Shown here piece after piece: positions 357 to 19,691 of a stretch of 20,000 nucleotides of DNA (the first letter of the stretch is position 1; every line of letters starts with the position of its first letter). The notes under the pieces are model-generated. The model was given only the letters and a program-made list of their open reading frames with translations. It did not search any database and was not told the origin of the DNA. This DNA is from Stramenopiles sp. TOSAG23-2. Taxonomy: Eukaryota. The translations under genes were made by a program, and so were the position numbers. The stretch covers positions 44,346 to 64,345 of the forward strand of contig LT649246.1 of the NCBI GenBank assembly GCA_900128395.1, read 5' to 3'.

Positions 357-3300
357 ATGAGTCAAAAGCAACAAGATAAAGAGGAAGAAACAAATAAAGA
401 TGGGGAGGAAAGTAATAATAATTTAAGTTTTGGTAGTGGCATAATTCCTGCTTTTGGTGCTGGTTTACAACAACCAACTTTTGCATTTACTGGTGGTGAT
501 TTTTCGATCCAAAAAGTTGAAGATGATGGAATATCTGTACCGACTGCTACGTATGCGGATGATAATTTCAGTTTTCCATCAACAGTTGCTTTTGGAACTT
601 CCACCAGTACACCAAAAATACAATTTGGTAAAGTAAATACTCCTGGAGGTGATAGAAGTGGCAATACCACTAATAATAATAGCGATAACAATAACAATAA
701 TAGTAACAACCAACTTTCTTTTGGCAGCGGACCAAGTACCTCTGGCAATTCAATCAACCCAATGTTAAATCCTGTATCAACAGAAACAACAAATTTGCAG
801 ACGCAGGTAACAGAAGCAAATACATCAAAAACAACATTTAACAAAACAAATATAAATTCACCATCTATAATAACACCTGTGAAGCAAGATATTGCTATAA
901 ATAATGATAATAATGATGGTGGGACGACATCGATGATGATGCCCACGACTACTACTACCACCAGCAGCACCACAACAACAACTGCATCTATAAATAACAA
1001 AGATGCAAATGATAATAAGAAGGAAGAAGAAGAAACAGAAGAAAATGAAGATGACTTGGAAATGCTAAATGATGATGGCAGTGACAACAATAGATGCCCA
1101 GCATATTTATCAGAAAAACAATTTGAGCAGATACAAAACAATCAATTAGGTTTAAGTATTATTTCAAAAGCGAATAAGTACATCAAAGCAGTGGAACGAA
1201 ACGCCGAGAGGGACCAAGCCAAAGCTAAAGCAAGGGTAATCGATTCAGAGCAACTTTTTCACCAGTTGGAAAATCGATTTGTACATTTACAAGAAGAATT
1301 AACAAAAGCGAAGATGGAAAAAGATAATGCATTGCAAAATGTGAAAGAGCAAGGAACAAAAGATCAATCTGAACATCTTGCATTAGTAGAAGCAAGGACT
1401 AAAATAGCACGATTGGATAATACAAAACATGAATTGGAGCGAAAGGTTGCAGAATTAACGGAAACGAAACGCAATGCGTTAGAAATGTCGGAACATCGTT
1501 TAACGACAATTGATCGTTTGCATGAAGAGTTACAAAATTCTGAGAAGAAGTTGTTGTCTTTGAGTCAACGCGAGGCGACATTTCAAGATGAATTAAATGA
1601 AGCAAAACGAGCATTGGCTCCTACGAAAATGGAAAGGGATAGATTTAAACAAGAGCTCGATGCCTTACGCGAACATGCTAAATGGGCGGAAGAGGAACAA
1701 GCAAAGAAAGCAAAAGAATTATTAGAAGAGCGTAAATCAAATGCTTTGAAAGTCACTGAGTTAAATTCAGAATTGCATTCCAAAACAACTGAAGCGACAA
1801 ATAATATTGAAATGTTACGTACGGAACGTTTACGTAGCAAGGAGCTTGGTGAGAGAATGAACAAATTACAGGCAGATTTGCGTGATTTACAAAGTTCAAA
1901 TGCTACGGAGCAAGAACAATACCGCACGGAACTTGCACAAAGCAAAAAGTTATGTGATTTATATAAAGCTTCACAAAGTGATGCAGAGGAGAAAGCAAAG
2001 GAATCAGCTGCATTATTGCAAAGCTTGCGAACAGCGGCTGCAAATGCACATGAATCATACACTGAAAAAGAGAAGAAATGGGAACTTGAACGGAAAAATT
2101 TAATGTTAACAAACGGCAGTAGTCTTGGCGTAGCACCTTCATCAAATACTACGACTACGACAACAACAAGTAAGAGCACTCTCCCAGCACCCAATGTTTT
2201 AAATGCTATGGGATCATTAGCCCCAACCGCAGTTGCTGCAATGCAAGAAAAACAAGGAATGACTATGACGGAAATGTATTCAGCCAAAATTGCAGTAGAG
2301 CAAGAAAATGCAAAATTAAAAGAACAGAAAAGGAAATTGGAAACATATATGTCTGAAATTTTGAATGAAGTTCAAAGTAAGGCACCATTAATTAACGAGC
2401 AGCAGCAAGAATACCAACGACTAGTTGGAAGTCATGATGAATTGAGCGGACGCTTGGAAAAAACAATGCAGGAGAATCGAACAGTTCAAATTCAATTAAA
2501 ACGCTCGTACGAAGAGCGAGATTTAGCATTACGTCGCGTTGCATCTGTAGATCAAGAAAATGCTGATTTAGCAAGGCAATTACAAAATTTATTACGGAAA
2601 CAATTAGCTGGTACTCTAAGTGCTACGAAAAGTGCATTGTTGAACGCATCATCGCCATACAAAAATGCTAATAACTTTGGTACATCGTATAGGACACCTA
2701 TGCAACACAATAATAACATGCAAATCACTGCCGAACGTGCTATTACAGAAAATTTAGTCACTTTTAGCGATATCGAAGATTTACAACGTCAAAATCAAAA
2801 GCTATTGGCATTAGTTAGGCAATTAAGCGGGGATAAGGAAAAAAAAGAAGAGGATGAAGAGCGCAAGCGAGCAGAAGAAAGCGCGCCATCTACCATGGAA
2901 AAATTGCGTTTGAAAGAGGAGGAATTAAAAGAACTTCAACAGGGTCGTGAGCGTCAGGCGAAAATCGTTCAAGCTATTGTTCGACAACGAGATCAATATA
3001 AAAAATTATTGGAGGAAGGTGGTGCTCTTGGAAGAGCAATTGGTGTTGCTGCAAAGGCTCGCTCAGAAATGAGTAGCACTAATGCTTCCAATGGACAAAC
3101 AGCACCTGCTGATCCAAATACCGAGGAAGATGGCGCCACCTCTAGCAGGCAAGCTGCTGATATTTCTGATCGTCTTCTTGCTGAAGTTCGCAGTGAATTT
3201 GCAGCGTACCGGGATGAACAACAACAAACGGTTGATATGTTGCAAACAACGTCAGCGAAGTTGAAGGAAGAAATTTCTAGCTTACGAGTGAAAGCAACTA

Positions 3301-6300
3301 GGTCTGAAGCTGACGCAAATTTCCACCGCGAAAACTATGCAACTTTGCTCAGTACCACCGAGGGAGCCAGGGAATCACTGGAGAATCATCGAAAACAAGT
3401 AGCGGAGCAGCAAGCGACGATTCTAAGTCATGAGCGTTTCTTAAAGGAAGTTCAACTGGAGCTAAATGCTGCAAAAGAGGAGTTAAATACGAATCGCACA
3501 AAATTGTTACGCTTGGAAGGCGAGAAAAAAAACGCAGACGCAGCAAATGTACGTTTAAAAAGTGAAAATGAACAAATTGCGGCAGAGCGAGATCGCTACG
3601 TAAAATTAGCCGATTCAATTCGCCGTATAGAAGATGGCTTGGAATCACGGGCGCATGATATGAATGATCAGCTAAAGAAAGATGTAAAACGCCTCGAAGA
3701 TGAGTTGAACACGGAAAGAAAGAATTTAACAGCACTTAGGGAGAAACACTCGGAGGAACTTTCTGCAGTACGAGGAAGTGAACAAGGGTTGAAAGATCGC
3801 TTGTATGCTCTTCAAAGAAAACATGATTTATTGGAGCAAAGCCAGGTTACTTTAACAGAAAAGAACGAAGATCTTGAGTCGCAATTAACACGCCAAGGGG
3901 AAGAGCTTTTGAATGCTCGTGAGGATATCAAGCGCCAAGCACGTAGACATCGTAGCAGTAGTGACAACCCAGAAGGAGAAGAGGAAGATGGTGGTTTCGC
4001 CCTTGTTGCCACAGCAAATGAAGTTGCTGAGTTAAAATTGCAGATCACAGATTTGCGTGCTGAGTTATCAGCTGCACGAACAGCAGCCAAAGAGCAAGCA
4101 AAATATGTCATTGAATACAAAACAATTGCACAGGCAAATGAGGATGCGTTAGCAAAAGTTTCGGAGTCATACGAGGCACTAAAACAGCAACACCAAGAAG
4201 CGGTGACCAAAGCGACAAATGATATAGATGCAATACGCGAAACGTTGCAGGCTAATATTAATGATTTAACAAAAGCTAAAGATGCCGCAGAGAAAAAATC
4301 AAAAACTGCTACTGCACAATTAGATGATGCATTTAAACGTGCGCAAGAAGCGGAGGAGGTCGCGAAGGGAGCCAGCGAGCGGGAAGCGAAAATGAAGGCG
4401 GATGTCAATGTATATGTGGTCGCTAGTAACGAAGCAACTGCTAATTATCAACGCGAACTTCAATTGCATGCAGAAGATTCCAAGCTTTTGGCATCATTAA
4501 GAAAGGAAAAGCTTTCAAATGATGCAGTCTTAAAAGAGAATGATAGGAAAATTGCAACGTTGACAGCTAATTTAGCGAATATGGAGCAAAGTCATAAAAA
4601 AGATTTAGAGCTTCTTCAAAGCGAGGTTTCAAGTTTAAAGTCCCGCAATGAAGAGATGGAGAACAAAAATATGGTCTTGCATGAGCAAATCGACACATTA
4701 ACTGCTAGAACGGATAAACTAATTGGTGACTATAATGGTGGTGATGGTGATGATGGCACTAGCAATGACGATGATGGCACGGCAATAGTTTTGGAGCAAA
4801 CACAGCAAAGCGAAGCTCAACTTCGACGACTTGTCAAATACTTAAGGAACGAGAAACAAGTTATACAAGCAGAAATGGATCTTGCAAAATCAGAAAGATT
4901 AAGAGCGAAACATCGCGCTGATTTATTAGGGAGACAATTAGATGAAGCCAGGATACAAATTATATCGCAAAGTGAAGCAGATTCAAATGGCGCAAAAGCT
5001 GCCGAGGAACGCCAAACGAAATTGTTGAAACAAACACAGCAAATATCATTATTAGAAGAGAGCAATATGTACTTAAAGCAAACTGCCACGGATAATGAAG
5101 AAAAATCGAAGACTCTTGATGCCAAAGTACAGAAATTGGAAAAGAAATTGAAGCCGATTGAGAAAAAGTTGAGAGATGCTATTGCTGAACGCGATGCTGC
5201 TATATCTGATCGTGCCCAGGCAGAAGAGGAGAAAGAAATGTGGCATAGTCGTGTCAATCATATGGTTAGTAAATATCATCAGATTGACCCCGCGATACAC
5301 CAAGAGAAAATGCAAAAGTTGGAGGAGACTGAAAAAGAGTTGGATAGTTTAAATAAAGCATATGCTAAAATGAGGCAGACACTTATGCCAAAATTAAAGG
5401 ACAAGGCACAAACGGAGAAAAAAAGAGCTGATGCTGCGACGAAAGACTTAGAAGCTGCGAAAGAAAAGATTCAGGAACTAGAAGCAAACGTTTCGTCTCT
5501 TGAAAAAAGCTACGAGCGATTAAGAAAAACTGCAAATGTTTTGAAGGCAAGAATTGCCAAAAAGGGAACGGGTGCACCGGCAGCGACAAGTGGAGGAAGA
5601 GTTACACCTGTACCTAGTACGTCAACTTCCACTACTACTTCAACCAAAGCAGCTAGCAACAAAGGCAAAAATAACAAGAATAAAAATAAGGACTTGAAAG
5701 GAGGAAAGAAAGGAAAGAAAGATGAAAGCAATAAAGTGGAAGAAATGAACGCCGAGGAGGAAAATAATGTTGGAGAAGAAGAGGAAGAAGAGGAGGAGGA
5801 AGTTGTACCAGAAAAGAAAGATAATAATCAAGGAAATAAAAAACAAATACAAAAACAAAAGAAGCAACAAAATAAGAAGCAAATAAGGAATACGGGTAAA
5901 AATAAACATAACAATAAATCCTCCGCCTCTGGTGCTTTAGGTAAAGATAAAGATGCTAAAAATAATAAAAATGTACAAAAAGTTGTCAAAAAATCTTCTG
6001 CAGCCAGCATCAAAGCAAAATTTTTAGGTGCTTCGTCGAAAAAGCCTAAGCCGGGAAGGAAAGAATCAGAATCTAAAGTGGATGATACGAAAGGTAATGA
6101 TGGCCCATCCCCCAAAAAAGCAAGCAGAAAATCGTCTGCAGATGCTGTCAAAGCAAAATTAGCAGCGAAACTAGCTAAAATGAAAAAGGAAAAAGCCGAC
6201 AAAATCCATGCAGCAAAGAAAAGAAAGCTATCGGATGTAAACGATGGAGATAATGACGTTGTCAGCGGTAATAAAAAAAATAAACGAAAGTTGGATGATG

Positions 6301-7370
6301 TTTCTGGTGTTACATCAGATGCTGTAGACGAAGAAGCTCCTGCTATTAAAAAGCAAAAATCTAATGAGGAATATAAAAGAAAGCTGAAAGAAGATATGAA
6401 AAAGAGAATGTTGCAATTGCAGGCACTAAGAAAGAAGAAGCGAACAGAATCAAAAGACAAAACCGAGGAAGTGAAACCAAGCCCGAAAGATAAAACAGAA
6501 GCTGGTGGCGATGACGAAAATAAAGAGGTTGAAGAGGAAGATGCTGATATGGTTGACGATAATAATGTTGTTGAAGTTGTTGATGCGGAGAATAAGAAAG
6601 ACGAGAATGATGATGATATTGAAGATGGCGAAGACAAGGATGTAACAACAACAACAACAACAACAACCACAACAACAACCAAGCTAAATCCATCTGCCTC
6701 TGTTTTTGTACCATCTGGACCAACATCGTCTTCTATTTTTGGTTCTACTACTAATGATGGAGGGACAGCTTTGTCTACAACTTCAAATCCTTTTGGAGCA
6801 TTTGGTGGTAGCACTACATCCTTCCCAACTTTCGGGGAAGTGCCTGCATCTGGTAATAATTCTATTTTTGGAAGTGGGACTGGTGATGGGCCAACTTTTG
6901 GTGATTCAACAACTTCATTTGGAACCTTTGGAAGCAATAAAAATGACGCAAATACACCAGCTATACCATTATTTAGCGCATCAAAGACATCGTTAACAAT
7001 GAATAAAGATAGCAGTGAAGCACCTGTGTTTGATGGCTCAACATTTGGAAGTGCAATGAAAAAACATAAATCAAAGCCTACTTTAGAATCGGTGCAAGAA
7101 GGTGAAAACGAAGAGTCAGGAGAGGAGGTATCTGGCGACGAGGATGAAAACGAGGAGGAAGATGAAGAGGATGAAAACGAGGAAGAAAATGATGATGATG
7201 ATGACAATGACGATGATCAAAACGATGAATCTGGCGAGGAAGAATTTGGAGAGGAGGACGAGGTTGAAGAAGAAAATGAGGAAAATTCAGAAGACGAAGA
7301 TGATGAGGATGAAGATGATGATGAAGAAGTTGACGAAGTTGACGAAGAAGATGACGCAGAGGAAGAGTGA
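357..7370 (+). CDS. TPR: Nuclear pore basket nucleoporin TPR/Mlp1 family protein (long coiled coil; low-complexity FG-containing termini, basic NLS-rich region, acidic tail)
   Basis: Uninterrupted 2337-aa ORF with a ~1500-aa heptad coiled coil. It has TPR/Mlp hallmark segments MTMTEMYS...LETYMSEILNEVQSKAPLINEQQQEY, LVTFSDIEDLQRQNQKLLALVRQL, NYQRELQLHAED (4443-4478), LRRLVKYLRNEKQVI, QISLLEESNMYL and WHSRVNHMVSKYHQIDP. Confidence 0.9.
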   Translation: MSQKQQDKEEETNKDGEESNNNLSFGSGIIPAFGAGLQQPTFAFTGGDFSIQKVEDDGISVPTATYADDNFSFPSTVAFGTSTSTPKIQFGKVNTPGGDRSGNTTNNNSDNNNNNSNNQLSFGSGPSTSGNSINPMLNPVSTETTNLQTQVTEANTSKTTFNKTNINSPSIITPVKQDIAINNDNNDGGTTSMMMPTTTTTTSSTTTTTASINNKDANDNKKEEEETEENEDDLEMLNDDGSDNNRCPAYLSEKQFEQIQNNQLGLSIISKANKYIKAVERNAERDQAKAKARVIDSEQLFHQLENRFVHLQEELTKAKMEKDNALQNVKEQGTKDQSEHLALVEARTKIARLDNTKHELERKVAELTETKRNALEMSEHRLTTIDRLHEELQNSEKKLLSLSQREATFQDELNEAKRALAPTKMERDRFKQELDALREHAKWAEEEQAKKAKELLEERKSNALKVTELNSELHSKTTEATNNIEMLRTERLRSKELGERMNKLQADLRDLQSSNATEQEQYRTELAQSKKLCDLYKASQSDAEEKAKESAALLQSLRTAAANAHESYTEKEKKWELERKNLMLTNGSSLGVAPSSNTTTTTTTSKSTLPAPNVLNAMGSLAPTAVAAMQEKQGMTMTEMYSAKIAVEQENAKLKEQKRKLETYMSEILNEVQSKAPLINEQQQEYQRLVGSHDELSGRLEKTMQENRTVQIQLKRSYEERDLALRRVASVDQENADLARQLQNLLRKQLAGTLSATKSALLNASSPYKNANNFGTSYRTPMQHNNNMQITAERAITENLVTFSDIEDLQRQNQKLLALVRQLSGDKEKKEEDEERKRAEESAPSTMEKLRLKEEELKELQQGRERQAKIVQAIVRQRDQYKKLLEEGGALGRAIGVAAKARSEMSSTNASNGQTAPADPNTEEDGATSSRQAADISDRLLAEVRSEFAAYRDEQQQTVDMLQTTSAKLKEEISSLRVKATRSEADANFHRENYATLLSTTEGARESLENHRKQVAEQQATILSHERFLKEVQLELNAAKEELNTNRTKLLRLEGEKKNADAANVRLKSENEQIAAERDRYVKLADSIRRIEDGLESRAHDMNDQLKKDVKRLEDELNTERKNLTALREKHSEELSAVRGSEQGLKDRLYALQRKHDLLEQSQVTLTEKNEDLESQLTRQGEELLNAREDIKRQARRHRSSSDNPEGEEEDGGFALVATANEVAELKLQITDLRAELSAARTAAKEQAKYVIEYKTIAQANEDALAKVSESYEALKQQHQEAVTKATNDIDAIRETLQANINDLTKAKDAAEKKSKTATAQLDDAFKRAQEAEEVAKGASEREAKMKADVNVYVVASNEATANYQRELQLHAEDSKLLASLRKEKLSNDAVLKENDRKIATLTANLANMEQSHKKDLELLQSEVSSLKSRNEEMENKNMVLHEQIDTLTARTDKLIGDYNGGDGDDGTSNDDDGTAIVLEQTQQSEAQLRRLVKYLRNEKQVIQAEMDLAKSERLRAKHRADLLGRQLDEARIQIISQSEADSNGAKAAEERQTKLLKQTQQISLLEESNMYLKQTATDNEEKSKTLDAKVQKLEKKLKPIEKKLRDAIAERDAAISDRAQAEEEKEMWHSRVNHMVSKYHQIDPAIHQEKMQKLEETEKELDSLNKAYAKMRQTLMPKLKDKAQTEKKRADAATKDLEAAKEKIQELEANVSSLEKSYERLRKTANVLKARIAKKGTGAPAATSGGRVTPVPSTSTSTTTSTKAASNKGKNNKNKNKDLKGGKKGKKDESNKVEEMNAEEENNVGEEEEEEEEEVVPEKKDNNQGNKKQIQKQKKQQNKKQIRNTGKNKHNNKSSASGALGKDKDAKNNKNVQKVVKKSSAASIKAKFLGASSKKPKPGRKESESKVDDTKGNDGPSPKKASRKSSADAVKAKLAAKLAKMKKEKADKIHAAKKRKLSDVNDGDNDVVSGNKKNKRKLDDVSGVTSDAVDEEAPAIKKQKSNEEYKRKLKEDMKKRMLQLQALRKKKRTESKDKTEEVKPSPKDKTEAGGDDENKEVEEEDADMVDDNNVVEVVDAENKKDENDDDIEDGEDKDVTTTTTTTTTTTTKLNPSASVFVPSGPTSSSIFGSTTNDGGTALSTTSNPFGAFGGSTTSFPTFGEVPASGNNSIFGSGTGDGPTFGDSTTSFGTFGSNKNDANTPAIPLFSASKTSLTMNKDSSEAPVFDGSTFGSAMKKHKSKPTLESVQEGENEESGEEVSGDEDENEEEDEEDENEEENDDDDDNDDDQNDESGEEEFGEEDEVEEENEENSEDEDDEDEDDDEEVDEVDEEDDAEEE
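6644..6680 (+). repeat. (ACA)n trinucleotide microsatellite encoding poly-Thr inside TPR
   Basis: The run aacaacaacaacaacaacaacaaccacaacaacaacc is directly visible. Less pure poly-Thr tracts also occur near 945-983 and 2148-2170. Confidence 0.85.
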
Positions 7371-9303: not shown

Positions 9304-10314
9304 ATGGAAGAAGAAGAAGACGAAGTAGGAAATGTTGATGAGTTGATACCGAAGAAGAAAAAGAAAACATGCTGTAATAATATAGTAGTAAGAAGAAAAA
9401 AATATATATTGATTTCAAGTATTATCATTATGATGATGACTGGTATTGTAATTTTAATAATATTTTTATTGAATGCGAAGCAAGAAATCATTCAAATACC
9501 TACTGCGTGTGTAAATAATGAAACTAACATAATAAATAATGTAAACAATAATGAAAATAATAAGTGTAATTTTTATATGCATACGAAATGGAATAATGTT
9601 TTACAAAAGTTTTTACAAAAAGATATTGTAAAGGAGGGCGTCACGTTTAATGCATTTGATTATTCAGGAATATTACAAGATAGAAGCTTGCTGGATGAAT
9701 ATTTAGAATTTTTAAAAAGTGCAAAATTAAAAGGGTTAACAAGAAATGGACAATTGGCATTGCTTTTAAATGCTTATAATGCATTCGCAATAGATATGGT
9801 TATATCAAATTTATGCAATCAACAATTATGTACCAGTATACGTGACGTACCAAATGTACCTTTGGGTGTTTCTGTTTGGAAGTGGAAGCGATTCATATTA
9901 GATGAAACAAAATTTAGTTTAGATGATATTGAACATGGAATGATAAGACCAACGTTTAAAGATCCTAGAATTCATAGTGCTGTTAATTGTGCATCTATTT
10001 CATGTCCTGATTTAAGAAAAGATGCATATGAGGAGCTAAACGTCCAGGATTTGTTAACAAATCAAACAAAATTATGGTTACAAAAACCAAATAATAAAGG
10101 ACTTAAAGTAAATAGCAATAATGTCATTTCTTTGTCTAAAATTTTTGATTGGTATTTGGGGGATTTTGAAAATGAATTTCCAAATGGAATGAGTAATTTT
10201 ATTAAAACATTTGGTGGTAGCGATGGTAAATCATATGCAAATCAATATGGCAATGACATCAACGATTGGAATATTGAATATTTTGATTACAATTGGAATT
10301 TAAATAATGTTTAA
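9304..10314 (+). CDS. DUF547 domain protein with N-terminal transmembrane anchor (type II membrane protein)
   Basis: 336-aa ORF. A hydrophobic stretch YILISSIIIMMMTGIVILIIFLL follows basic RRKK. DUF547 motifs are QLALLLNAYNAFAI, FSLDDIEHGMIR, DPRIHSAVNCASISCPDL, LSKIFDWYLGDF and IEYFDYNWNLN. Confidence 0.88.
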   Translation: MEEEEDEVGNVDELIPKKKKKTCCNNIVVRRKKYILISSIIIMMMTGIVILIIFLLNAKQEIIQIPTACVNNETNIINNVNNNENNKCNFYMHTKWNNVLQKFLQKDIVKEGVTFNAFDYSGILQDRSLLDEYLEFLKSAKLKGLTRNGQLALLLNAYNAFAIDMVISNLCNQQLCTSIRDVPNVPLGVSVWKWKRFILDETKFSLDDIEHGMIRPTFKDPRIHSAVNCASISCPDLRKDAYEELNVQDLLTNQTKLWLQKPNNKGLKVNSNNVISLSKIFDWYLGDFENEFPNGMSNFIKTFGGSDGKSYANQYGNDINDWNIEYFDYNWNLNNV

Positions 10315-12602: not shown

Positions 12603-14705
12603 ATGTCAACCAATATAGAACTGCCTGCAGATGTGGAAGAGTTGAAAAAACTTGTTTTAACTTTACAAAAACAACTTGCAGCAGCCGGTGTAGATCCATC
12701 AGCGGCATCGATATCACTAGATAAAGCAAAAGAAATGCTTACAGCCGCATTGACACGTTTAATGGAAGGGGATCAAAAGGCTCAAGGTGAATATGATAAA
12801 TGGGATAAACTTGTTTCGACACATCCTGAGCATTTAGAAGAACAAGAAAAGAAAGAAAAAGAATGGGAAGACGAAATGGAAAAAAAATGTAAAGCAGCAT
12901 TGGAAGAAATGAAAGAAATTATTCCATCGAATATAAAACAAATGAAAAAAGATGAAGTGGAAGGACTTCCAGGGATGCATGCATCGTTGGCAAAAAGGTT
13001 ACTACGGAAAAAAGCACTATGGCTTCTTCACGTACCAACAGAAGATATCTCGAAATATCATGCTGCTGATTTAATGGTAAAATTCTCTATTAACGGTTTG
13101 GACTTTAGGGAATTAAAAGCATTATACGCAGTAGTACCGAAAACAATGGACAATGATGCGGATGGCAGAAAAACGGAATGGCGAATACAATTGAAACGAA
13201 AATTAAGAGAATATAGTGACAAAGAAATAAGTGGCAATTTGCCACAAAGCAAATTGATTAGCCCCGATTATTCAGAGAAAAAGATTACATCCAGAAGGAG
13301 ATCAACTGGTTCAATGAAGAATCCATTTGGCAAAAAAAAAATAGGTGGAACAGGAGGTATGGGAAATTTAGCTGCGATGTTGGAAATGAAATTCAAATCG
13401 AAAGGCATGAAGAATTCTCCTGGTCCATCAAAAACAAAGAAAAATAGTAAAGTAAAAGGCAAATTAGGTGGCATTGCATCTAAACTAGAAGGAAAATTAT
13501 TTAATAAAGGAGGTGGACTACTAGGTGGTAAAATTAAAAATCGCCGTGCATCTATTTCTGGACCAATGACTAGTAATAATAAATTGAAAAGTACAAAACT
13601 AAAAGGAATTGCTAGTGCATTGGAAGGCAAACTATTCAATAAAAGTAACAGTGCTAGCAAAAGCAATAGCATTGGAAAGACGCCTGGAGTCCGGCGCAAA
13701 AGCAAGAAAATGGCTGCATTATCAAGTGCACTTGAAAATACATTATTTAAAAATAAAGGTAGTACTACTGGTAGTAGTAGTAGAAAAAATAATAAAAATA
13801 GCAGCCGTAGTGGTTCCAACGTCGGTAGTTTAAGTGGGAAAAGAACCGCATTTTTGAAAAATAATACTAGTAATGAGAAACGAAAATTGAATGGTAACGA
13901 AGGAACCATAGGGGAATCTGGGCGACGGATAAGTACGGATATAAGAACATCACCAGATGATGTGGCATCTCCAGATTTAATGGATGTTATAAAGAAACAT
14001 AACAAAGTTAAACGTAAAATAATGTTTCCAAGTTCATCATCAGCATCAAATGAAGATGATCTTGATACGAAGAAAGGGGAGGAGGAGGAGGAGGAGGATA
14101 AGGCAGTATCTAACGAAGACGATGACGATAGTATAAAGAAAACAAAAGGAAAAAAATTGAAAGGAGGTGAAAAAGCAACTGTTATTAAAAAAGATGACAT
14201 CGTATTGAATGGAAAGAACGTCGTAGTTGTTTCGAAATATTATGCATATGCCTTTATATTTATCTTTCTACTTATACTTGGAATTTTTATCAAACCGTAT
14301 ATGGTACCATCCAATAATAATAATGCTGTGATATATGACACAGAAAAAAAGAGACAACAAGAGGAAGAGGAAAGGGTTAAAATAGAAATGGAAACAACGC
14401 GAACTGAAAATAAAAAGAAAGTAGAAGAAGAAAAAAAACGTAAGATAGCTGCATCAGCTCCACCAAAGCATAAAATTAAAAAAACTTGCCAAGCGAAAGG
14501 TGGATATGGTGCAGGATGTGTATATACTTCTGATGGTGCTGTATCATTAAATGCTGGAGAAGAAGATGTAACGTTGAAAAAAGATACAAAACCAGATCCA
14601 GAAGCTGTTGCTAGAGCACAAAAAGCTCGACAAGTACAAAATCGAAAATCAAAATATAAGAAATGGCAAGAAGAGAAGAAGAAGAAAAGTGCTACTACTG
14701 CATGA
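12603..14705 (+). CDS. Uncharacterised single-pass membrane protein with N-terminal helical globular domain, K/G/S-rich repeat region and late TM helix
   Basis: 700-aa ORF with typical coding composition. It has an ordered N-terminal ~220 aa (LAKRLLRKKALWLL...GLDFRELKALYAVVP...NDADGRKTEWR), four related repeats at 13362-13760, and a TM segment YYAYAFIFIFLLILGIFI at 14238-14291. Confidence 0.8.
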   Translation: MSTNIELPADVEELKKLVLTLQKQLAAAGVDPSAASISLDKAKEMLTAALTRLMEGDQKAQGEYDKWDKLVSTHPEHLEEQEKKEKEWEDEMEKKCKAALEEMKEIIPSNIKQMKKDEVEGLPGMHASLAKRLLRKKALWLLHVPTEDISKYHAADLMVKFSINGLDFRELKALYAVVPKTMDNDADGRKTEWRIQLKRKLREYSDKEISGNLPQSKLISPDYSEKKITSRRRSTGSMKNPFGKKKIGGTGGMGNLAAMLEMKFKSKGMKNSPGPSKTKKNSKVKGKLGGIASKLEGKLFNKGGGLLGGKIKNRRASISGPMTSNNKLKSTKLKGIASALEGKLFNKSNSASKSNSIGKTPGVRRKSKKMAALSSALENTLFKNKGSTTGSSSRKNNKNSSRSGSNVGSLSGKRTAFLKNNTSNEKRKLNGNEGTIGESGRRISTDIRTSPDDVASPDLMDVIKKHNKVKRKIMFPSSSSASNEDDLDTKKGEEEEEEDKAVSNEDDDDSIKKTKGKKLKGGEKATVIKKDDIVLNGKNVVVVSKYYAYAFIFIFLLILGIFIKPYMVPSNNNNAVIYDTEKKRQQEEEERVKIEMETTRTENKKKVEEEKKRKIAASAPPKHKIKKTCQAKGGYGAGCVYTSDGAVSLNAGEEDVTLKKDTKPDPEAVARAQKARQVQNRKSKYKKWQEEKKKKSATTA

Positions 14706-14913: not shown

Positions 14914-16683
14914 TTAAATAAATCCATTTTGAACACGAGCACTGCTATGTGTATTCTTTTTCTTCACACCAAGACTTTTATCCAATATCATTTTTTTCGT
15001 TATATGACCTTCTTCATGCAATTCATACCCATGATGCCGTAAATGTTGATCCAAATCTAAAGAGTTGAAATTCCAATCTTTTGCAACATATATAGTTGCT
15101 TCACCAGTTTCAAGTTCGATGGACGAGTACAAAACACCATCGGCTTGATTTATAATTCTACCAACCGCATCAATACATGCCTCGCAACCCATATTATCAA
15201 CAACATATGTTTGCTTTATCGCATTTGATGTCGGTGGCGCAATTGCAGGTCCACCTAATAACTTTAATCCTTCTGGCATATACATCAATAATATTGTTAT
15301 GATAGTATTAATAAACAATCGCTTTTGAATTTGAGTAAAATATGATGTTATTTTCTTCTTATTCTTTGCATCATCTTTTTTTTTATTGTTTTTCGTCGTT
15401 ATCTTACCTTTATTATTATTATTATTTCCTAATGCATGGTACCATAGAACAACCAACCAGGTCAACGTTACAAATCTTAGGTATGGTCGCAATGGTCCTA
15501 AAATGACATTAAAACCAGCACAACCAATATGAACAATATCAAAAACAGAAAGAATGTTCAATCCTAATTGTAACAAGCAACATGATGAGCTTAGAAGTCC
15601 AGCTAATATGCCTGTTGTAAAATGTGATATGCTGGTTGTTGTTGGTGTAGAATCCATAGTCATCTCCGCCACAGTCTTTGCAACACTTGCTATTGCTGTG
15701 GGTTTACTTTTTCTTGTAACAACCTCGTCCTTCTCGTCATCATCCGAGGATAATGCAGTAATTTCATCAGGTCTTATTAATACTTTTTCCACGTTATTAA
15801 TATTTGCACTAAATCCAATATCATTGATTCGGGTGGTAAGTAAAGGTACAGTATTTTCCCACGTATTTGTTTTCACAAATGCTTCTCCAGTTTCTAATAC
15901 CACAGTTGAATGTCCTACAACACCTTTTGTCGACTCAATCGTATTTTTTATTGTTTGCACACACGCTATGCAGTTCATACCTTCAATTTTCAATTTATAC
16001 TCTGATACATTTGCTTTCTCATCTGTATTACTCCTATTTTTTTCTTCCTTCGATGCATTACGGTGATCTTTATATTTTATGTAATAAAACAAAATTTCAG
16101 GTAAAAAGGTCAATGCAGAAGTAACTAAAATGGATATGTATGCACGTAAATATTGTTCCTCTTTTTCAATTGAAAGAAATTGCCATGTTTGTGTTATAGT
16201 AACAATAGAAACGAAAAATGGCCGCATCGGCCCTAACACTGAATTCAACCCAGCACAACCAATGCTAAAACAATTTAATATCAGCTGAAAGGCACAGCAA
16301 CTTGAACTTAAGAGTGATATAATTATCCAAGCTCCTAATTGATGCGAGAAGCTCATTGCTTGATACAATATATAATCATATACGATAGTACACTTTTCTT
16401 TTAAATACCTATTCGTCAAAATTGCTTGTAAGATAAATATATTAAATGTTAACCAATATAAATATTGAGAAAAAAACGTAGATGAAGATACTAAATAATA
16501 TGATTTTTTCTTTTGCTGGTTTGTCACATCATCAGTCGTTCCTTCTTCTTTTTTGTTCTTTTTATCATTTTTCAATTTATTATTCCGTTCCTTATTATTT
16601 CTTGAGGTCGCCCGTGGCCTCTTGCTATTTTTCCGCACTTTCTTCTTCTTCTTTTGCGATGGTTGCTTCTTCCGTGTCTTCAT
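14914..16683 (-). CDS. Heavy-metal transport protein-like: two tandem [MerT/MerF-like membrane module + HMA domain] units
   Basis: 589-aa ORF. Membrane modules are SLLSSSCC...GCAGLNSVLGPMRPFF and GLLSSSCC...GCAGFNVILGPLRPYL. HMA domains are YKLKIEGMNCIACVQTIKNTI...VVLETGEA and YVVDNMGCEACIDAVGRII...IELETGEA. The C-terminus is His-rich. Confidence 0.82.
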   Translation of the reverse strand: MKTRKKQPSQKKKKKVRKNSKRPRATSRNNKERNNKLKNDKKNKKEEGTTDDVTNQQKKKSYYLVSSSTFFSQYLYWLTFNIFILQAILTNRYLKEKCTIVYDYILYQAMSFSHQLGAWIIISLLSSSCCAFQLILNCFSIGCAGLNSVLGPMRPFFVSIVTITQTWQFLSIEKEEQYLRAYISILVTSALTFLPEILFYYIKYKDHRNASKEEKNRSNTDEKANVSEYKLKIEGMNCIACVQTIKNTIESTKGVVGHSTVVLETGEAFVKTNTWENTVPLLTTRINDIGFSANINNVEKVLIRPDEITALSSDDDEKDEVVTRKSKPTAIASVAKTVAEMTMDSTPTTTSISHFTTGILAGLLSSSCCLLQLGLNILSVFDIVHIGCAGFNVILGPLRPYLRFVTLTWLVVLWYHALGNNNNNKGKITTKNNKKKDDAKNKKKITSYFTQIQKRLFINTIITILLMYMPEGLKLLGGPAIAPPTSNAIKQTYVVDNMGCEACIDAVGRIINQADGVLYSSIELETGEATIYVAKDWNFNSLDLDQHLRHHGYELHEEGHITKKMILDKSLGVKKKNTHSSARVQNGFI

Positions 16684-17189: not shown

Positions 17190-18098
17190 ATGAATATTCG
17201 CGTAGTCGAAGATGTGCCGGAAGTCTTAATTGAATGGATGATCGAATATTTTGATGGCGTAACATTATGTAAATTCATTGAAACTAGTATTTTGAAACAA
17301 ATGAAGTCAAGAAGATTATCAAAACGTTGTTATGAAAAAATATTTAAATTTAAAATACTAAATGGGTTGTATAAAATGATTGGTTGTAAGGATGGTTATA
17401 ATGTATATAAAGTAGAAAAGCGCGATAAGCATCCTTCCGTTGAAAAAGCAGTTTGTGCTGCAAAATGTATTGCAGAAGTTGTAGCAAATTGTGATGGTAT
17501 TGATGATGGGAGATATAAATTTTCATTTCCTTGCGTCGATTGGCCAGGACATACAAACGATACGGATCGTCCAATCGGTTGGTCAACAAAAAAGAAAGTG
17601 AAAATACAAAAAAATGGAGTTCAATACGATGATCCTGAATATGAAAAACCAAAATATGAAATTCAATTATCAAATAGTATAGAATGTAACCCACAATCTA
17701 TCGTTATTCCTTTTGGAATTCCTTTAAGACTAGTTGCATCAAAAACATTAAAAGAAGAATTTCAATATTTAAAATTAAATGCATTGACACTTGCCGGTTC
17801 AAATAATAAATTAAAGTATGTTGAAAATGCAGGCAGGGCAAATGGATGGAATGTTGCTGAAATAATGAGATTACAACGGCATATAGTATCATCAAAAGCA
17901 GGAAAAAATATAATCCAAAGAAGATGTGAACAAGGAAGACGTATACAAGGTATACGAAATATTACACCGGGAATTGTGGACCTACGTGTGAAAAAATACG
18001 ATCTTGATGAAGTTATTTTAGAAGTTGTTGATATACGTCCAGATTATTTCGTTATGGATAGAAGAAGACGATTACTACGGAGGATGTTACGATTATAA
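17190..18098 (+). CDS. Hypothetical protein with weak N-terminal F-box-like segment
   Basis: 302-aa ORF. The N-terminal EDVPEVLIEWMIEYFDGVTLCKFIETS resembles an F-box (LP.E....I..YLD..TL......S). The remainder is not recognised. Confidence 0.6.
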   Translation: MNIRVVEDVPEVLIEWMIEYFDGVTLCKFIETSILKQMKSRRLSKRCYEKIFKFKILNGLYKMIGCKDGYNVYKVEKRDKHPSVEKAVCAAKCIAEVVANCDGIDDGRYKFSFPCVDWPGHTNDTDRPIGWSTKKKVKIQKNGVQYDDPEYEKPKYEIQLSNSIECNPQSIVIPFGIPLRLVASKTLKEEFQYLKLNALTLAGSNNKLKYVENAGRANGWNVAEIMRLQRHIVSSKAGKNIIQRRCEQGRRIQGIRNITPGIVDLRVKKYDLDEVILEVVDIRPDYFVMDRRRRLLRRMLRL

Positions 18099-19154: not shown

Positions 19155-19355
19155 TTTTAGTTTTGAATTATTACATAAAAGCAGGGAGTTCATTAGGTGT
19201 ACACCAAGATGATACCTATCTTTTTTCTCGCCCTATTATATCAATTCGACTTTTTAGTTTTGAATTATTACATAAAAGCAGGGAGTTCATTAGGTGTACA
19301 CCAAGATGATACCTATCTTTTTTCTCGCCCTATTATATCAATTCGACTTTTTAGT
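19155..19355 (+). repeat. Perfect 97-bp tandem duplication bounded by TTTTAGT microhomology
   Basis: 19155-19258 is identical to 19252-19355 (period 97). TTTTAGT is present at the start, junction and end. Confidence 0.95.
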
Positions 19356-19691
19356 GATTCAATATTATCATTTGGTTGCAAAGGTATGGGAATGCAAGAG
19401 ACCCCATATTATTTTCCTATTGAACAAAAAGTTGGCACAATCACAATCATGGAAGGTTTAGCAGCAAATAATATGTTACATTGCATACGTTCCCGTGATA
19501 TTAAGCAAAAAAGTTTATCGATTATATTTAGACAAGTAACAGAAAAAGCAATAAAAGATATGCATTTGTTAAATTTAAAACGGGAAAGATGTAATATGTT
19601 AAAGGAGGATCATTTAATGCGTTGCATCACCACCGACGATACCATAGTACCAGATAAAAATAATAAATATACGAGTCGTAATATATTATAG
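19155..19691 (+). pseudogene. ALKBH5-like AlkB family 2OG-Fe(II) dioxygenase, C-terminal half only, disrupted by a 97-bp tandem duplication (pseudogene or misassembly)
   Basis: LVLNYY...GVHQDDTYLFSRPIISIRLFSDSILSFGCK...GTITIMEGLAANNMLHCIRSRDIKQKSLSIIFR matches the ALKBH5 pattern (HxD...RPIVSVSFFSDSALCFGCK...THCIR..DIK...IILR). HxD is at 19299-19307 and the distal His at 19479-19481. In the copy-1 frame there is no ATG between the upstream stop (19109-19111) and the domain. Confidence 0.72.

Follow-up and report, generated by a model that had tools for sequence, protein, structure and literature searches.

Mer transporters carry Hg(II) to the bacterial cytoplasm, and for MerT three membrane spans are predicted (accessible part of PMC3466566). 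The Mer superfamily is classified as TC 1.A.72 and is described, in the accessible text of PMC6215804, as channel-type with no energy requirement. A eukaryotic gene related to these systems lies in a 20,000-nucleotide (nt) stretch of Stramenopiles sp. TOSAG23-2 DNA (GenBank assembly GCA_900128395.1, contig LT649246.1, positions 44,346 to 64,345 of the forward strand), referred to below as the window. The reverse-strand gene encodes 589 amino acids (aa) arranged as two successive units, each with a membrane module of Mer type followed by a heavy-metal-associated (HMA) domain. An earlier note, made from the letters of the window alone, had described it as an internally duplicated MerT–MerP-like protein and a candidate metal transporter. 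The analysis reported here points, with slightly better than even confidence, to a seven-helix protein in which two antiparallel MerTP-like units form an ATP-independent soft-metal relay.

The two halves of the protein are related to each other and to a single bacterial family. They show 28% mutual identity (BLASTP, E value 7e-18), and family profiles of each half align over 162 columns, from the first helix of the module to the end of the HMA domain, with an E value of 5.8e-46 and a probability of 100% (hhalign). Both comparisons bear out the internal duplication. The whole protein matches the NCBIfam model NF033556 (mercuric transport protein MerTP, 186 positions) with 98.3 bits and an E value of 4.1e-28. 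Half 1 alone covers positions 3–184 of this model (45.9 bits, E value 4.8e-12) and half 2 alone positions 1–184 (60.1 bits, E value 2e-16). Each half thus spans the model end to end, as expected of the covalent tandem of two MerT–MerP-like units that had been proposed. Pfam MerT (PF02411) is matched in two stretches with an E value of 2e-06. Pfam HMA (PF00403) is also matched in two stretches, at 49.6 bits against a cut-off of 24.8 (E value 5.4e-13), which places the protein within that family. The earlier note had named a lack of profile likeness to Mer families as an outcome that would count against it; similarity to Mer and HMA models was found. No ATPase family is matched in Pfam at E values up to 10, and the NCBIfam ATPase models match through the HMA stretches only. 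With no recognizable actuator, phosphorylation or nucleotide-binding domain, the protein is evidently no P1B-type ATPase, in agreement with the earlier note on the point of P-type ATPase domains.

Alignment of the halves with three Bacteroidota MerTP proteins taken from genomes identifies the shared positions: the vicinal Cys pair (CC), the Arg-Pro of LGPxRP, the Pro of the third helix and the MxCxAC motif of the HMA domain. The three elements that mark MerT, namely vicinal Cys in the first transmembrane (TM) helix, a hairpin and an xPxRP motif, all occur in the window protein; the CC pair and the Arg-Pro are invariant in both units of 55 relatives and in the bacterial alignment. Three hydrophobic segments are also predicted for each unit, and these coincide with helices of the AlphaFold2 (AF2) model. 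Two positions are specific to the eukaryotic side of the alignment, the Glu of an LPE motif in the third helix and the Cys of a GCAG motif. The latter is the extra Cys per unit that the sequence had suggested at first sight, and none of the three bacterial proteins has a Cys there. The window protein for its part lacks the C[GD]C loop pair of the bacterial proteins. Bacterial fusions of MerT and MerP, to which the earlier note referred, do exist: two Bacteroidota MerTP proteins, from the loci L001 and L002, pass the 180-bit cut-off of NF033556 with 250 and 206.8 bits.

Conservation was assessed across a set of relatives. A search restricted to proteins of similar length (8000 candidates scored) returned 92 relatives at E values up to 0.001, and the 55 chosen as complete in both units form the conservation set used throughout. 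Nine Cys are invariant in all 55, C129, C130, C143, C238, C241, C368, C369, C500 and C503, and C388 is present in 54. Both CC pairs are therefore retained without exception, whereas their loss in homologues would have spoken against the first reading. Q133, N147, R154, P155, P195, R399, P470 and E471 are likewise invariant, as are Q372 and N376 in the module of unit 2 and G499, E501 and A502 in the second HMA domain (HMA2). Conservation is densest from the second half of TM1 through the hairpin into the start of TM2 (GLLSSSCCxxQLxLN...GCAGFNxxLGPxRP), and again at LPE near the end of TM3. The motifs were all confirmed at the places given at the outset: the CC pairs at 16294–16299 and 15577–15582, GMNCIAC at 15961–15981, NMGCEAC at 15175–15195, GCAG at aa 142–145 and 387–390, and LGP[ML]RP at aa 150–155 and 395–400. 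The His-containing C-terminal sequence HLRHHGYELHEEGH (aa 547–560) is present as first described, but is not a feature of the family. Its His residues are lineage-specific (H547 in 5, H550 in 7, H551 in 9 and H556 in 10 of the 55 relatives), and a family-wide metal site at this run was rejected. What is conserved in the same segment belongs to the end of the HMA fold: L548 in 55/55, G552 in 53/55 and Y553 in 47/55.

The arrangement of the units in the membrane can be read from hydropathy and charge. Seven hydrophobic segments recur across the 55 sequences, three per unit (TM1–TM3 and TM1'–TM3') and an additional N-terminal helix, TM0. The maximum Kyte–Doolittle hydropathy of TM0 has a median of 1.83 and is at least 1.4 in 41 of the 55; in the linker from HMA1 to unit 2 this value is reached in none of the 50 sequences scored. 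TM2' is moderately hydrophobic (median 1.16, at least 1.4 in 14/55). Given three helices in each unit and no helix between the units, an antiparallel arrangement follows if every one of the seven segments is membrane-spanning. Charges were interpreted by the positive-inside rule, with the N-terminus, the segment after TM3, the end of the linker and the TM2'–TM3' loop as the proposed cytosolic side. Near the membrane this side has on average 9.9 Lys plus Arg and the opposite side 4.0; the count for the proposed cytosolic side is higher in 53 relatives, equal in two and lower in none. Homologous loops are biased in opposite senses. Lys and Arg in the TM2–TM3 loop are more numerous in unit 2 than in unit 1 in 47/55, and the segment after the third helix is richer in unit 1 than in unit 2 in 49/55, with means of 2.7 after TM3 and 0.45 between TM3' and HMA2. 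The TM2'–TM3' loop is net positive in every relative; the CC pair found there in some tandem and most single-unit relatives, at the place of the C[GD]C of bacterial MerTP, also counts in favour of the topology. Opposite bias of homologous loops, three helices per unit and a linker free of helices are the marks of an inverted repeat, and all are found here in the sequences. Most likely, then, the units are antiparallel, with the N-terminus and HMA1 in the cytosol and HMA2 on the outside or in a lumen, where it would resemble periplasmic MerP. Unit 2 would have the usual orientation of bacterial MerT, in which the Cys-bearing TM2–TM3 loop faces inside. The parts of the protein are listed in table 1. 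The conserved TM0, the opposite charge bias of the units and the single origin of unit 1 described below are new here.

Table 1. Parts of the tandem Mer-like gene, with positions in the window. pLDDT, predicted local distance difference test; fractions refer to the 55 relatives of the conservation set.
Feature	Position	Strand	Remarks
Whole coding sequence	14914..16683	(-)	ATG start, 589 aa plus stop codon; single unbroken frame, no intron required
Lys/Asn-rich low-complexity N-terminal tail, aa 1-57	16513..16683	(-)	pLDDT <50; net charge +2.76 over 55 relatives; probably cytosolic
Motif K[KR]x[YH]L[IV]xSxGF and extra helix TM0, aa 58-91	16411..16512	(-)	F70 55/55, L64 48/55; AF2 helix 68-90, pLDDT ~95
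Amphipathic TM0-TM1 helix, aa 92-116	16336..16410	(-)	AF2 helix; hydropathy >=1.4 in 0/55; net charge -0.64; probably non-cytosolic
Unit 1 membrane module, aa 117-203	16075..16335	(-)	TM1 with SSSCC, GCAG hairpin, LGPMRP, TM2, TM3 with LPE; Pfam MerT stretch 118-166
Vicinal Cys pair C129/C130 in TM1, inside SSSCC	16294..16299	(-)	55/55; aligned with CC of bacterial MerTP
GCAG hairpin-tip Cys C143, unit 1	16255..16257	(-)	55/55; no Cys there in 3 aligned bacterial MerTP
HMA domain 1 (HMA1), aa 227-301, GMNCIAC	15781..16005	(-)	CxxC 15961-15972; Pfam HMA; probably cytosolic
Acidic disordered linker, aa 302-351	15631..15780	(-)	pLDDT 36-42; no hydrophobic segment
Unit 2 membrane module, aa 352-475	15259..15630	(-)	TM1' with SSSCC, longer GCAG hairpin, LGPLRP, TM2', Lys/Asn-rich loop, TM3' with MPE
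Vicinal Cys pair C368/C369 in TM1', inside SSSCC	15577..15582	(-)	55/55
GCAG hairpin-tip Cys C388, unit 2	15520..15522	(-)	54/55
HMA domain 2 (HMA2), aa 488-557, NMGCEAC	15013..15222	(-)	CxxC 15175-15186; Pfam HMA, second stretch; probably extracytosolic
C-terminal tail, aa 558-589, sub-family motif G[HW]xTKKM	14917..15012	(-)	Common to closest relatives and diatom single-unit forms; missing or gapped in about half of 55

In this topology the hairpin-tip Cys and the Glu of LPE would lie on the same side as the HMA domain of their own unit, with the CC pair deeper in the membrane; two half-channels meeting mid-membrane are therefore proposed. The suggested mechanism is as follows. (i) TM0 would insert with the Lys-rich N-terminus in the cytosol and would thereby invert unit 1. 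(ii) The two units would serve as half-channels, each open on the side of its own HMA domain. (iii) A soft metal would be handed from the CxxC of HMA2, outside, to hairpin-tip C388 and on to C368/C369 in the middle of the membrane. (iv) From there it could pass to C129/C130, also mid-membrane, then to hairpin-tip C143 and to the CxxC of HMA1 in the cytosol. (v) Transfer would proceed by thiol ligand exchange and would need no ATP, the drive being a cytosolic thiol or chaperone sink. The proposed relay comprises ten Cys, the nine invariant ones and C388. How the CC pairs pack on one another, which way transport runs and which metal is carried are all inferred.

Several observations weigh against this arrangement or against its reading as a Mer-type relay. 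The whole protein and both halves miss the equivalog cut-off of NF033556, and the Pfam MerT match, at 28.3 bits, lies below its cut-off of 32.9. Scores against the NCBIfam models for MerT (NF010314, 27.1 bits; cut-off 150) and MerP (TIGR02052, 32.2 bits; cut-off 92.55) are also low. As the scores lie below curated cut-offs, function cannot simply be transferred from MerT or MerTP; the relation to MerTP is one of clear sequence homology, not of family membership in the sense used for naming. In MerT the cytoplasmic loop that joins helices 2 and 3 carries a further Cys pair. Both TM2–TM3 loops of the window protein are free of Cys, and a CC pair is kept in the loop of unit 2 in only 12 of 55 tandem relatives, as compared with 14 of 20 single-unit relatives and the C[GD]C found there in bacterial MerTP. 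The charges of the single-unit relatives are mixed: the net charge is +2.3 in the loop, but it is likewise positive in the segment that follows TM3 (+1.25; 12/20) and negative at the N-terminus (-2.6). The AF2 model of the full protein has a predicted template-modelling score (pTM) of 0.48, and the helices that carry the CC pairs are its weakest membrane parts (pLDDT 51–64 in TM1 and 49–56 in TM1'). No solved structure resembles the membrane module: among the best 50 Foldseek rows for the full and unit-2 models only HMA-type structures occur. A CxxC outside the cytosol would also need to be kept reduced. Lastly, no result discriminates between metals.

Other structural comparisons concern mainly the HMA domains. 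HMA1 is modelled in the beta-alpha-beta-beta-alpha-beta fold with pLDDT values of 81–93, and HMA2 reaches 87–95. Unit 2 modelled alone has a pLDDT of 79.3 and a pTM of 0.56. The top Foldseek match in the PDB, for the full model and for the unit-2 model, is MerP (1osd), with a TM-score on the target of 0.81–0.82. A PDB profile search with a 22-sequence unit alignment returned, among its best 60 rows, HMA-type structures only, apart from two chance rows with E values of 0.18 and 0.53. The low confidence of the model at TM1 and TM1' leaves the membrane disposition open to another interpretation, in which the protein is a membrane-anchored metal chaperone, buffer or sensor. Both HMA domains would then lie on one side, through a re-entrant hairpin or a TM0 that does not span, and the Cys would bind or sense metal without transport. 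The moderate hydrophobicity of TM2' suits such a protein, and HMA domains of eukaryotes are usually cytosolic. On the other hand, seven spans agree with the Lys/Arg bias of 53 of 55 relatives, and the bias is never reversed, the segment between TM3' and HMA2 is poor in these residues, and the invariant CC, Gln, Asn and Pro-Glu within helices are what a conduit would need. The homologues of Mer type are, moreover, transporters (accessible part of PMC3466566). An anchored chaperone or sensor is considered unlikely.

The antiparallel 3 + 3 repeat inferred here, in which both first helices carry Cys and a CxxC domain lies on either side, also invites comparison with CcdA/DsbD, whose arrangement is similar and whose repeats each carry membrane Cys. 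By analogy, the protein could be a trans-membrane thiol–disulfide (electron) relay that passes reducing equivalents between the CxxC domains of the two faces. Neither a DsbD nor a CcdA family is matched in Pfam or NCBIfam at E values up to 10, and no sequence relationship to these proteins was detected in the same searches. The flanking domains have HMA and not thioredoxin folds, and the homology is to metal transporters of the Mer group. Such an electron relay is judged very unlikely.

For the metal relay, the physiological substrate is most likely Cu(I), and the chemistry would also allow Hg(II), Cd(II) and Ag(I). Cu(I) is favoured because protist lineages that are unrelated to one another have kept the family, and because a mercury-detoxification partner is not evident here. 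CopZ models give HMA1 a slightly better score than MerP gives the protein, but the difference is small. The obvious competitor is a mercury-specific importer with the same architecture and relay, which would detoxify Hg(II) by handing it to a mercuric reductase in the cytosol or to some other sink. MerTP is indeed the sole family matched along a whole unit, and MerP 1osd heads the structural matches for both HMA models. The nearest prokaryotic relatives point the same way, in that they adjoin an ArsR-type metalloregulator and a GDCCVxC protein. Against a mercury importer, the window contains no mer partner, the scores fall far below the equivalog cut-off, and conservation over very different protist groups is more in keeping with a nutrient metal than with a rare toxicant. 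In mer systems, import of Hg(II) without a reductase makes cells hypersensitive. A dedicated mercury importer is thought quite improbable.

These prokaryotic relatives were located in a scan of one genome per species, which gave 57 matched stretches and six confirmed relatives. Four are Bacteroidota MerTP loci at 25–28% identity; the other two, in Alphaproteobacteria, match through the HMA part only. At L001 (5570–7552) and L002 (5567–6782) the MerTP gene follows an ArsR/SmtB-type regulator gene and precedes a gene for a GDCCVxC (seleno)protein. No mercuric reductase was found among the open reading frames (ORFs) inspected at 3000–9500 of L001 and of L002. In L001 MerTP and GDCCVxC are separated by a 253-aa ORF without a family, and a CusA/CzcA-type resistance–nodulation–division (RND) pump comes afterwards. 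At L003 (5944–6168), from a Sediminibacterium metagenome-assembled genome, the MerTP frame stops at 75 aa while the tblastn match runs on; the gene is apparently interrupted.

The history of the duplication was followed in two trees. A quick tree of 133 rows (55 unit 1, 55 unit 2, 20 single units and three bacterial MerTP) places all 55 unit-1 rows in one clade with a long stem and a Shimodaira–Hasegawa-like approximate likelihood ratio test (SH-aLRT) value of 95. In this tree the subclades of units 1 and 2 largely match. A careful tree of 63 rows comprises 26 tandem proteins with two units each, eight single units and three bacteria, the four longest-branched single units and the remaining tandems having been left out. 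All 26 unit-1 rows again form one clade (ultrafast bootstrap/SH-aLRT 100/100). Since unit 1 is one clade in both trees, a single duplication before the sampled tandem proteins split is indicated. Unit 2 falls together with the single units in an unresolved grade; if they are constrained to one clade, the log-likelihood drops by 2.1 units, and the approximately unbiased (AU) test does not reject the constraint (p-AU 0.41). Unit 2 is nearer the bacterial model, with 60.1 bits as compared with 45.9, the CEAC motif kept and the loop CC pair present in 12 of 55; unit 1 is evidently the faster-evolving copy. The single units of diatoms may be ancestral or may have been reduced by loss of unit 1, and the AU result (p 0.41) favours neither.

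The window protein is one member of a widespread and conserved eukaryotic family and not a one-off fusion. Its closest relatives have 59–62% identity. Named full-length tandem relatives occur in Chromera velia (36% identity), Cymbomonas tetramitiformis and Amoebophrya sp. A120, and more come from the MMETSP and EukProt transcriptomes. Database names are limited to 'HMA domain-containing protein' and the automatic 'copper chaperone CopZ'. The nearest ESM Atlas cluster is 88% Eukaryota, with Haptophyta commonest; the Atlas also holds diatom clusters of 278–289 aa and a Bacteroidota HMA/MerT cluster of 191 aa. On the few named matches and this summary, the tandem form is present in a chromerid, a syndinian and a prasinophyte, and probably in haptophytes too. 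No description of a eukaryotic MerT–HMA protein or of a tandem Mer transporter was found in the open full-text literature, supplements not included.

Shorter and longer relatives were sought with half 2 alone and no restriction on length (phmmer), which gave 502 proteins at E values up to 0.001. Many of the best 150 are single units of about 200–300 aa, such as the named Chaetoceros tenuissimus protein CTEN210_12309 (P0225; 259 aa), and diatoms are among the organisms that have them. Larger fusions that include the membrane part are absent from these 150 matches, in which proteins with that part do not exceed 634 aa. A 1636-aa protein (P0189) is matched through its HMA stretch only and by eye resembles a P-type ATPase with many HMA repeats. 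Another match, P0165 (198 aa), is a single unit with a short hairpin of unit-1 type and a bacterial-like LEPYRP, and forms a long branch beside the unit-1 clade; it could be a fragment or a free-standing form like unit 1.

The gene itself appears sound. A public contig of 1965 nt encodes a 590-aa protein (P0002) that matches the window protein except for one more Asn in a poly-Asn run, and because that contig encodes the full-length protein, one gene with one product is indicated, not two. The run (15415–15429, minus strand, aa 419–423) lies in the TM2'–TM3' loop and is one residue shorter in the window; the insert is of low complexity, and the change may be a length polymorphism or a difference between assemblies. 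Among the closest relatives unrelated sequence takes the place of this insert. An assembly join of two neighbouring genes, or a decaying duplicate, would leave no functional fused gene at all. The one hint of this kind is a close relative predicted as two ORFs (P0008 and P0213, on one 36,592-nt public contig), with short scrambled stretches in place of conserved motifs; it looks like a frame disruption or unrecognised introns. In the window the frame is unbroken, the 1965-nt contig has the same full-length protein, 55 relatives share the tandem layout and the invariant Cys, and the unit subclades largely match. A non-functional join or relic is thus hardly credible. Selenocysteine, whereby an in-frame UGA for a relay Cys would end the short relatives, was considered and rejected, as P0008 and P0213 show scrambled stretches typical of frame disruption.

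The surroundings of the gene agree with the eukaryotic setting assumed from the start, as do the named relatives, which are all protists or algae. The DNA is gene-dense and its G+C content is low (0.26–0.44 per 1 kb), and long ORFs occur on both strands. The longest of the neighbours described here (357–7370, plus strand) encodes 2337 aa with a TPR/MLP1/MLP2-like nuclear-basket domain at aa 1321–1448 (Pfam, E value 4.9e-15) and a weak PAM2-like motif. As this ORF has a TPR/MLP1 nuclear-basket domain, the window is regarded as eukaryotic nuclear DNA with long intron-free genes. Seven neighbouring ORFs were compared with Pfam, giving TPR/MLP1, DUF547 and a weak 2-oxoglutarate (2OG) oxygenase match, with the other four lacking a family. 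None of the seven is a mer partner, and the neighbours are unrelated eukaryotic genes. There are no tRNA genes in the window. A scan around the gene with bacterial promoter and terminator models gave 22 promoter-like sites against 16.2 ± 3.8 expected, a result that says nothing about a eukaryotic gene.

The other ORFs, all on the plus strand, may be described briefly. The DUF547 protein (9304–10314, 336 aa) has a few close relatives at 40–99% identity. Nearly all named matches among its best 120 are bacterial, at about 33–38% identity, with one green alga (Ostreobium) at 32%, and a bacterial ancestry is possible. A Lys/Ser/Gly-rich ORF of 700 aa (12603–14705) is convergent with the Mer-like gene across a spacer of about 208 bp. 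It has no Pfam family, one hydrophobic stretch near its C-terminus and the motif [LM]xx[IL][AS]S[AK]LE[GN][KT]LF three times, at aa 288, 333 and 370. On the other side, at a distance of 506 bp, is a divergent ORF of 302 aa (17190–18098), also without a Pfam family, for which the ESM Atlas gives a weak F-box lead (0.88, with a low feature count). It was considered as a partner of the Mer-like gene and set aside, no link being seen. Finally, an ORF at 19197–19691 has a weak match to 2OG-Fe(II) oxygenases (24.2 bits, cut-off 31.2).

The acquisition of trace metals limits the growth of marine protists, and few routes for copper are known. A broader reading of the family, offered tentatively as something short of probable, is that it is the first eukaryotic family of Mer-superfamily transporters, with a layout that is not known to have been reported for a Mer protein. 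A half-channel would have been duplicated once and an added N-terminal helix would have flipped the first copy, creating an antiparallel thiol ladder with an HMA domain at each mouth. In marine protists this would provide an ATP-independent route for Cu(I) or soft metals beside CTR channels and P1B-ATPases. If true, it would be a natural and datable example of an odd-helix unit that became an inverted-repeat transporter by one duplication and one helix. A candidate Cys-lined pathway of metal uptake or trafficking, independent of ATP, would be available to ecologically important groups, among them prasinophytes, chromerids, parasitic syndinians, organisms of haptophyte type and, in single-unit form, diatoms. 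By this pathway mercury, cadmium or silver could also be admitted to these cells and hence to the marine food web. To our knowledge, no full structure or mechanism is available for bacterial Mer transporters. The fused form fixes the stoichiometry of two units and, if the antiparallel arrangement is correct, their relative orientation; it suggests a testable model of how metal passes a bilayer through a Mer-type protein.

Of the known systems, bacterial MerTP (NF033556, as in L001 and L002) is the closest to one unit, with three helices, CC in TM1, an (E/A)PLRP motif, the Pro of TM3 and an HMA domain with MxCEAC. Its identity to the window protein is about 28% by tblastn and 20–24% in the alignment with three MerTP proteins. 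It differs in being a single unit of about 200 aa without TM0 or a hairpin-tip Cys, in having FPYY or FPFF for LPE, and in its C[GD]C loop pair. An ArsR-type regulator and GDCCVxC accompany it at the bacterial loci; a context of this kind, with a metal regulator or mer genes, was not encountered in the window. Proteobacterial MerT and MerP share with each unit the vicinal Cys of the first helix, three predicted spans, a thiol-exchange partner of HMA fold and, for the proposed function, inward transport free of ATP (PMC3466566 and PMC6215804, accessible parts). They are separate proteins, whereas the window gene fuses both parts and is accompanied by no MerA, MerR or operon.

Single-unit proteins of the CTEN210_12309 type have SSSCCxxQLxLN, GCAGFN, LGPLRPY, MPE, DNMGCEAC and the tail GYELHxxGWxTKKMK in common with the window protein. 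They show 39–42% identity to unit 2 and are grouped with it in the trees. They differ in having one unit, no TM0 and no second HMA domain, and 14 of 20 keep the CC pair of the TM2–TM3 loop. HMA metallochaperones and the HMA domains of P1B-ATPases (CopZ, Atx1/ATOX1, ATP7A/B), together with MerP, share the GMxCxxC loop and the ferredoxin-like fold, with TM-scores on the target of about 0.8. In the window protein the HMA domains are tethered to a membrane module of Mer type in place of an ATPase or a free chaperone. Small transporters with inverted-repeat or dual topology, lastly, consist of two homologous bundles in opposite orientation, with an odd number of helices and an opposite Lys/Arg bias in homologous loops, a bias seen here too, where sequence alone suggests the antiparallel form.

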